Shown here: positions 7,610-48,347 of the stretch, one piece after another
Layout: every line of letters starts with the position of its first letter
Numbering within the stretch: the stretch's first letter is position 1
DNA from: Promethearchaeia archaeon
Lineage (GTDB): Archaea > Asgardarchaeota > Lokiarchaeia > Sigyniarchaeales > SOKP01
Assembly (NCBI GenBank): GCA_029856105.1
Contig: JAHQWH010000034.1
Coordinates: 1-51,523, forward strand
Direction of reading: 5' to 3'
Length of the DNA stretch: 51,523 nt
The notes under the pieces: model-generated
What the model saw: only the letters and a program-made list of their open reading frames with translations
What the model was told of the DNA's origin: nothing
The model's database searches: none
Made by a program: the position numbers and the translations under genes

Positions 7610-7694
7610 GCGGGAATTGCCAAGTCTGGTCTACGGCGCTGGACTTAGAATCCAGTCTCAGAGGAGTTCGAGGGTTCAAATCCCTCTTCCCGCA
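7610..7694 (+). tRNA. tRNA-Leu(TAG), intronless
   Basis: GCGGGAA/TTCCCGC acceptor; CTGGA-CTTAGAA-TCCAG anticodon arm; long variable arm; GAGGG-TTCAAAT-CCCTC. Confidence 0.97.
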
Positions 7695-7855: not shown

Positions 7856-7987
7856 GCTCTCGTAGTGTAGTTCGGCCAAACTTTCCTAATAGGAAAGGGC
7901 TTAGCATGCTAGGCTTTCACCCTGGTGACAATACGGAACAAATCGGACCGTATCATTAACCGGGTTCGAATCCCGGCGAGAGCACCA
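7856..7987 (+). tRNA. tRNA-Glu(TTC) with two introns (7880-7903 at 21/22; 7930-7959 at 48/49), CCA encoded
   Basis: GCTCTCG/CGAGAGC-ACCA; CTAGG-CTTTCAC-CCTGG; BHB helices GGCC/GGCT and GGTG/CATT with 3-nt bulges and intron hairpins CTTTCCTA/TAGGAAAG and ATACGG/CCGTAT. Confidence 0.92.
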
Positions 7988-8021
7988 TCAGAACTTGGTA
8001 TAAAGCATTGGAAAATAATCT

Positions 8022-8218
8022 GCCTCGATAGCTCAGTTAGTGAGAGCACCGTATCGGTGTGCTTGATAAAGTAGAGCACCCGGCTCGAATAATGGATGGA
8101 TTTACCATTATTCCCGGAAGTTAACCGGGCGGTCGCATGTTCGATTTGTTGACTAACCTCTGGGCAATACGAGAACCATAAAATAATCGATTTCCGAAGT
8201 TTGGTTTAGCTCGGGGCG
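8022..8218 (+). tRNA. tRNA-Asn(GTT) with four introns (~8039/41-8068/70 in D-loop; 8086-8119 at 33/34; 8146-8175 at 59/60; 8180-8208 at 63/64)
   Basis: Removing four hairpin inserts yields a full cloverleaf: GCCTCGA/TCGGGGC-G, GCTC/GAGC, CCCGG-CTGTTAA-CCGGG, GCATG-TTCGATC-CATGC; BHB helices CCGG/CCGG, TTCG/CGAG, AACC/GGTT. Confidence 0.88.

Positions 8219-45012: not shown

Positions 45013-48347
<3,335 letters not shown>

Follow-up and report, generated by a model that had tools for sequence, protein, structure and literature searches.

A four-intron tRNA-Asn(GUU) gene with interlocked T-arm introns and a probable splicing order in a Promethearchaeia archaeon

Introduction

Nested pre-tRNAs of Crenarchaeota and Thermoproteales reportedly carry up to three introns. 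In the account of nested archaeal introns that PMC3978253 gives of earlier work (Sugahara 2007; Tocchini-Valentini 2009, PNAS 106:20246), the last intron forms its BHB motif only after the others have been processed. The tRNA genes of the red alga Cyanidioschyzon merolae, where permuted as well as multi-intron pre-tRNAs are processed in an ordered way, can contain up to three ectopic BHB introns in the D-arm, in the anticodon arm and in the T-arm, and intermediates detected by RT-PCR show that one order, in keeping with BHB stability, is preferred (Soma et al. 2013, PMC3728597). Among Asgard archaea, Valentin-Alvarado et al. 2024 (PMC11291895) found introns in 92-95% of the tRNA genes of Atabeyarchaeia and Freyarchaeia, and Supplementary Data 4 of that study lists four-intron genes for Arg-TCT, Ile2-CAT, Leu-GAG and Trp-CCA in Freyarchaeia and Atabeyarchaeia. 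A preprint by Goswami et al. 2026 (October; 10.64898/2026.10.13.758758) reports up to five intervening sequences per gene and identifies D-arm introns as those that annotators miss. Multi-intron Asgard tRNAs and ordered nested tRNA splicing are already documented (2007-2013; 2024, 2026). The published four- and five-intron Asgard genes also make outdated the archaeal maximum of three introns, on which the initial annotation of the locus described here had relied.

Here we describe a tRNA-Asn gene of a Promethearchaeia archaeon with four introns, two of which share nucleotides in their splicing motifs. The locus resembles those of the two Asgard studies in having several small BHB-type introns at non-canonical positions within one tRNA gene, and the adjacent Asn(GTT)-Glu(TTC) gene pair is found in the genomes of PMC11291895 as well. 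Both studies however centre on other Asgard classes, and their tRNA-Asn genes have two introns. The preprint text makes no mention of Lokiarchaeal or Promethearchaeal genomes nor of nested or sequential splicing, and interlocked motifs and removal order are undiscussed. As in the nested pre-tRNAs of Crenarchaeota and Thermoproteales, in so far as they are summarized in PMC3978253, one intron breaks up the structure by which another is recognized; here intron 4 lies in the T-stem that flanks intron 3. A further likeness is the dependence on a broad-specificity heteromeric EndA, an architecture that we infer for this genome. The locus differs in that the early intron also borrows six bases of the late intron, a situation known here from comparison. 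C. merolae differs in being a eukaryote, in an order set by motif stability and not by shared nucleotides, and in lacking a 4-nt exon.

Results

A tRNA-Asn gene in five exons

The window, which is the whole 51,523-nt stretch analysed (contig JAHQWH010000034.1 of assembly GCA_029856105.1), contains the following gene, with exon borders given in their corrected form.

8022..8218, plus strand: tRNA-Asn(GTT) gene of 197 nt with five exons and four introns, discriminator G8218, CCA not encoded
8022..8040, plus strand: exon 1, with the 5' strands of acceptor stem and D-stem, U8 between them, and the D-loop to G18
8041..8070, plus strand: intron 1, 30 nt, position 18/19, relaxed BHB-like motif
8071..8085, plus strand: exon 2, G19-U33, with the remaining D-arm, A26, anticodon-stem 5' strand, C32 and U33
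8086..8119, plus strand: intron 2, 34 nt, non-canonical position 33/34, relaxed motif of the HBh' type
8120..8145, plus strand: exon 3, anticodon GTT to U59
8146..8175, plus strand: intron 3, 30 nt, position 59/60 in the T-loop, strict motif
8176..8179, plus strand: exon 4, 4 nt, CCAT, C60 to U63
8180..8208, plus strand: intron 4, 29 nt, position 63/64 in the T-stem, strict motif
8209..8218, plus strand: exon 5, G64, C65, acceptor 3' strand and discriminator G73

The initial annotation had proposed a tRNA-Asn(GTT) of about 74 nt spread over 197 nt in five exons, and the exons joined in silico are indeed recognized by ARAGORN as a 74-nt cloverleaf tRNA-Asn(gtt), in the annotated as well as in the corrected version. 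The gene starts with a tRNA 5' end (GCCTCGA-TA-GCTC) and closes with the matching acceptor strand TCGGGGC, followed by the discriminator G. The corrected mature tRNA has U8, A14, G18G19, A21, U33, the pairs G15:C48 and G53:C61, the T-loop UUCGAUC and G73. The expectation that standard finders would miss the gene was borne out, as neither ARAGORN nor the Rfam tRNA model matched the unspliced locus 8022-8218, the latter even at E<=10. Within the window, ARAGORN reports a tRNA-Leu only (7610-7694), and Rfam reports this tRNA-Leu and an intron-containing tRNA at 402-503. The intron-less orthologue L017 reaches 66.8 bits on RF00005 (gathering score 29). Another intact tRNA-Asn elsewhere in the genome had been named as a possible sign of a pseudogene; none was found in the 3.66-Mb assembly (238 contigs, 92% complete, 6% contamination) by ARAGORN -i, blastn-short with the mature sequence, or a scan for the anticodon arm. 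A TATAAA at 7999-8004 was considered as the TATA box of a promoter and rejected, being only about 20 nt from 8022 and thus too near for a typical archaeal TATA box.

Related genes fix the borders independently of the motifs

Orthologues were found in 94 of the 135 genomes of the family by searching the locus against related genomes. A search of GTDB species genomes also recovered the exact 26-mer of exon 3, in 54 DNA stretches from Asgard MAGs, with sources labelled as Promethearchaeota, Promethearchaeia, Hermod-, Hod- and Thorarchaeota MAGs. The nearest named relative is Promethearchaeota archaeon isolate HM4_B22. A spliced-alignment script placed the mature sequence onto every related locus, and 61 distinct gene sequences were counted. 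Intron numbers among these range from none (4 genes) through one (15 genes), two (4 genes) and three (27 genes) to four (11 genes). The last count includes L095, for which the aligner proposed five introns as an artefact of a diverged acceptor stem and which has four introns when inspected by eye.

The borders of introns 2 to 4 and the CCAT exon are fixed without reference to any splicing motif because related genes lack individual introns. Genes without the 59/60 intron (L007, L010, L011, L019, L029, L030) read GTTCGATCCAT unbroken, and genes without the 63/64 intron (L005, L008, L009, L012-L014) read CCATGC unbroken. The 4-nt exon proposed at 8176-8179 is therefore sound, since relatives missing either neighbouring intron read straight across it. 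Genes without the 33/34 intron read GGCTGTTAACC unbroken, and the exon 1 region is unbroken as GCTCAGTTAGGTAGAGC in L012-L014, L036 and L038. Across the 61 distinct orthologues, exons are conserved and introns variable, with intron helices kept through compensatory change. The four-intron layout of the window is retained in at least five species of its clade, and four-intron layouts also occur in other genera. Two other placements were rejected. A canonical 37/38 position for intron 2 leaves the 5' side without GTTA, and a single large intron at 8146-8208 would remove CCAT and break the T-stem; relatives carry the two introns separately.

The related genome G009 holds two tRNA-Asn copies, one with four introns and GGTT (L004/L026 on C148), the other with three introns, lacking the 59/60 intron and carrying GGAA (L019 on C430), which could be either a real duplication or a mixed-strain bin. 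Genes of the genus g22 (L032-L035, L100) have a 63/64 intron of about 85 nt without a BHB: at the borders that the mature sequence implies, 0-1 central pairs out of 4 form. This intron may contain a nested second intron or have other borders.

Splicing motifs of introns 2, 3 and 4

We took as BHB core two 3-nt bulges, which hold the cut sites, with a 4-bp helix between them. Strict motifs (hBHBh') have a flanking helix on either side (h and h'), each of no fewer than 2 bp, and relaxed motifs (HBh' or hBH) have one such flank. The borders that had been read for introns 2-4 are exact, and each of these introns has a complete central helix at the borders fixed by comparison. Intron 2 pairs CCGG with CCGG (4/4) between 3-nt bulges, has an inner helix of 9 bp and no outer helix, and its motif coincides with the local minimum-energy fold (z = -2.6). 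Among its orthologues, 38 of 39 distinct sequences retain all four central pairs and the inner helix, using 20 different helix sequences. Intron 3 pairs UUCG with CGAG (4/4) and has an outer helix of 3 bp and an inner helix of 5 bp. Intron 4 pairs AACC with GGUU (4/4) and has outer and inner helices of 4 bp each; this full hBHBh' motif exists only while intron 3 is still present. Random pairs of borders, drawn in the real gene or in shuffles, produce a strict motif with p about 6e-4 and four central pairs plus one flank with p about 7e-3. The joint chance of the motifs at introns 2-4 is about 3e-9.

The D-loop intron

Intron 1 has a weaker motif. Its central helix AGUU/GAUA consists of 3 bp and an A.A mismatch, its bulges are AG/U and AA/G (slash at the cut), and its inner helix is GAG/CUU. 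The chance of such a motif is p about 0.05, and it differs from the local minimum-energy register. The intron is present in 16 distinct orthologues, with at least three central pairs in 16/16 and the inner helix in 13/16, and compensatory variants of the central helix include AGCT/GGCA, AGTT/GACA and AGTT/GGCT. An 8-nt repeat, AGAGCACC, lies both at 8043-8050 within intron 1 and at 8073-8080 in exon 2, so that nine cut pairs yield an identical product. Relatives without a D-loop intron read AGTTAGGTA. Only the cut pair between 8040 and 8041 and between 8070 and 8071 restores G18G19 together with the D-loop sequence of these relatives. The junction that the initial annotation had noted as ambiguous by about 2 nt is thus resolved, and lies 2 nt upstream of the border implied there. 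An intron at 8039-8068 was also considered. It has 4/4 central pairs here, but leaves the D-loop AGTTAAGTA without GG and has only 3/4 central pairs in L003 and L004.

In related genes, D-arm introns at 18/19 and at 22/23 (L006, L007/L099, L012-L014) share a conserved core, …agcaccg-ywtc-ggtgtgc…, containing a copy of the 3' strand of the D-stem. They would thus seem to be a single intron, displaced by 4 nt through duplication. In some relatives the 18/19 and 22/23 introns occur together, with a 4-nt exon GTAG between them.

The T-arm introns share nucleotides

Introns 3 and 4 are separated by the 4-nt exon, and their motifs overlap through one segment.

8170..8175, plus strand: CGAGAA, dual-role segment, the 3' end of intron 3, used by the intron-4 motif

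Within this segment, CGAG 8170-8173 is the 3' strand of the central helix of intron 3 and also the 5' strand of the outer helix of intron 4, where it pairs with CUCG 8210-8213. A8174 and A8175, the final bases of intron 3, make up half of the central helix of intron 4, as the initial annotation had seen in its AACC/GGTT pairing. On the exon side, C8177-U8179 serve the outer helix of intron 3 and C8176-C8177 the central helix of intron 4. Both motifs thus lay claim to CGAG 8170-8173 and to C8177, and intron 4 in turn splits the T-stem helix of intron 3. In the isolated segment 8168-8215, the minimum-energy fold is the intron-4 motif, with 8170-8173 paired to 8210-8213 and 8174-8177 to 8203-8206; one additional A-U pair moves the 5' bulge by one nucleotide.

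The clade of the window comprises five four-intron genes (from G000, G005, G014, G009 and G142), and all of them show the same dependence. Intron 4 has 4/4 central pairs and a 4-bp outer helix in the primary transcript. Removal of intron 3 leaves it with 3/4 central pairs, an internal U-U mismatch and an outer helix of 1 bp. The outer helix of intron 3, which is the T-stem, has 3 bp before and 5 bp after removal of intron 4. The earlier claim that this T-stem is completed by removal of intron 4 therefore stands for the gain from 3 to 5 bp, although the motif of intron 3 is formally full beforehand. For three four-intron genes of another genus (L041, L042, L047), the primary context is likewise the more favourable one (3/4 versus 2/4).

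Sequence changes follow the presence of the neighbouring intron. The intron-4 strand is GGTT in all five clade genes, where intron 3 ends in AA. In the nine genes with a short intron 4 alone, the strand is GGAA (5 genes), GGAT, GGGA, GGGG or GGGT and pairs with the exon bases (A)UCC. The end of intron 3 is CGAG where both introns are present and mostly CGAA where intron 3 stands alone. The five GGTT genes are close kin and thus represent roughly one evolutionary event.

Splicing machinery and proposed maturation

Two EndA paralogues are present in the genome, both about 200 aa long and both containing PF01974 and PF02778. The paralogue on contig C107 (L021:1171-1773) has the Tyr/His/Lys triad, matches crenarchaeal catalytic subunits best (3p1z_B, 3.2e-34), and is nearest to the A. 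pernix, S. tokodaii and P. aerophilum catalytic subunits. The second paralogue (G000:C12, L022:1210-1815) is nearest to M. jannaschii EndA, and in the alignment to that enzyme it keeps the catalytic Tyr and Lys and has a Ser aligned at the catalytic His125. From its sequence, this second protein is probably the structural subunit, and the two would then probably form a crenarchaeal-style alpha2-beta2 enzyme of relaxed specificity. In the account given in PMC5829648, the alpha2-beta2 and epsilon2 types of EndA are those known to cut non-canonical motifs. RtcB is also encoded in the genome (559 bits).

The gene would be transcribed as a precursor of about 200 nt with introns at 18/19, 33/34, 59/60 and 63/64. 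The host EndA would cut within the 3-nt bulges, and RtcB would join the five exons into the 74-nt tRNA. The predicted mature junctions (each marked by a slash) are …GTTAG/GTAGAG…, …GGCT/GTTAA… and …CGAT/CCAT/GCTCGG…. In the proposed pathway, intron 4 would sit in the T-stem flanking intron 3 and use the six bases at the end of intron 3 for its own motif. With the T-arm introns interlocked in this way, productive maturation would most likely remove intron 4 first and intron 3 second. The predicted intermediate, with intron 4 out and intron 3 in, would read ...CGAGAACCAU/GCUCGG, and the alternative intermediate, with intron 3 out and intron 4 in, would read ...UUCGAU/CCAUAAAA.

Discussion

The four-intron gene at 8022-8218 is real and firmly backed by the comparison of relatives. 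We consider it likely that it is the functional tRNA-Asn(GUU) gene, with the T-arm pair most likely spliced intron 4 first. The early intron borrows six bases of the late one, hence removal of the late intron first would damage the motif of the early intron. Partition-function folding of the 3' domain points the same way: the intron-3 motif gains in probability from 4.5e-4 to 0.025 once intron 4 has been removed, and the intron-4 motif drops from 2.9e-4 to 7e-6 if intron 3 is removed first. These absolute probabilities are low, and neither T-arm motif appears in the minimum-energy fold, be it that of the entire precursor or that of the 3' domain. The fold of the whole precursor reproduces the region of introns 1-2 and replaces the T-arm motifs by long-range pairing of 8119-8130 with 8199-8211, hence thermodynamics alone cannot decide the order. 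An unlikely alternative is that the four introns are real and their order is not enforced. A relaxed EndA would then cut the eight sites independently of one another or in whatever order, and the sharing of CGAGAA would be a by-product of the 4-nt spacing. Intron 3 has its full motif in the primary transcript before any cut (4/4 central pairs, outer helix of 3 bp, inner helix of 5 bp) and could thus go first. The two T-arm conformers of the primary transcript are about 1.6 kcal/mol apart in constrained energies, with similar motif probabilities in the 3' domain. Relatives with a lone intron 4 manage with 3/4 central pairs and a 1-bp outer helix, hence a relaxed-specificity enzyme may tolerate a damaged motif. 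Against such independence, GGTT is confined to genes where intron 3 is present, and an A-to-G change creates the CGAG that pairs with CUCG. Both changes look like selection for the motif of the primary transcript. Cutting intron 3 first would moreover create the internal U-U mismatch and lower the motif probability about 40-fold. Comparative co-variation is the strongest argument, and we regard the removal of intron 4 before intron 3 as reasonably probable. The order proposed in the initial annotation is hence retained as the favoured one and not as an obligatory one.

Two further readings concern intron 1 and the status of the locus as a whole. Placing intron 1 at 8043-8072, or at an equivalent cut in the AGAGCACC repeat, would give a D-loop AGUUAGUGA and a mature tRNA …AGUUAGUGAGAGC…, as the initial annotation had it. 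The repeat makes nine cut pairs equivalent, and ARAGORN still accepts the product. Yet the product has no G19, not one of these nine cut pairs combines more than three central pairs with a flanking helix, relatives free of a D-loop intron read AGTTAGGTA, and at the 18/19 border a BHB-like motif is conserved and co-varies in all 16 distinct orthologues, which makes this placement very improbable. Even less credible is a decaying pseudogene that acquired insertions, with the true tRNA-Asn hidden in the 8% of the genome that is unassembled. The incompleteness of the assembly and its division into 238 contigs leave some room for such a copy. Against decay, the exons of many species are identical or almost identical, whereas the introns have diverged with changes that compensate each other. 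All tRNA invariants are intact, the four-intron layout persists in the clade and recurs in other genera, and the adjacent tRNA-Glu is built likewise. The reading of 8022-8218 as a presumably expressed tRNA-Asn gene with intron 1 at 18/19 is thus the preferred one.

We suggest, as a tentative view that falls slightly short of an even call, that the T-arm introns have co-evolved into a cooperative unit. In such an intron-assisted BHB, CGAGAA would supply the outer helix and half of the central helix of intron 4, and the later-spliced intron would scaffold the folding of the earlier one and shield the 4-nt exon from mis-splicing. The changes from GGAA to GGUU and from CGAA to CGAG would have been fixed after the two introns came together. 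If true, an intron-assisted BHB would turn round the dependency that is described for nested introns of crenarchaea. The novelty is modest and lies in an early intron that borrows the 3' end of a late intron, with matching compensatory changes. The general picture of archaeal tRNA splicing remains unchanged by this result. Extremely fragmented tRNA genes, as reported for Atabeyarchaeia and Jordiarchaeia, are also present in a lineage of the Promethearchaeota/Lokiarchaeota type. The tRNA-Asn family moreover amounts to a natural experiment, with zero to four introns at six sites in close relatives and two introns only 4 nt apart. It offers substrates for studying site choice and order by a broad-specificity EndA.

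Neighbouring genes and the tRNA set

In this lineage, standard finders detect no more than roughly half of a tRNA set. With introns allowed, ARAGORN reports 23 tRNA genes in the 3.66 Mb of the assembly (G000), including doubtful calls for Ile-aat, Phe-aaa and Pyl-cta. With so few genes recovered, most of the tRNA set is probably hidden by multiple non-canonical introns.

The upstream neighbour of tRNA-Asn has a similar architecture.

7856..7987, plus strand: tRNA-Glu(UUC), two introns, encoded CCA

Its intron 1 (7880-7903, position 21/22) has the central helix GGCC/GGCU and an inner helix of 7 bp, and its intron 2 (7930-7959, at the junction of variable loop and T-stem) has the central helix GGUG/CAUU and an inner helix of 6 bp. 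The unspliced gene is missed by Rfam and mis-called as tRNA-Ser(aga) by ARAGORN -i, and the spliced 78-mer is recognized by ARAGORN as tRNA-Glu(ttc). The gap between tRNA-Glu and tRNA-Asn is only 34 nt, and the two genes may thus be co-transcribed.

Further away, the window begins with the 3' end of a 16S rRNA (1-322), followed by an intron-containing tRNA-Ala(TGC) at 402-503. A 23S rRNA lies at 45014-48345, 44.5 kb downstream, and measures 3332 nt versus the 2987 positions of the model. The distance and the excess length indicate that the rRNA genes are unlinked and that the 23S rRNA gene contains insertions.
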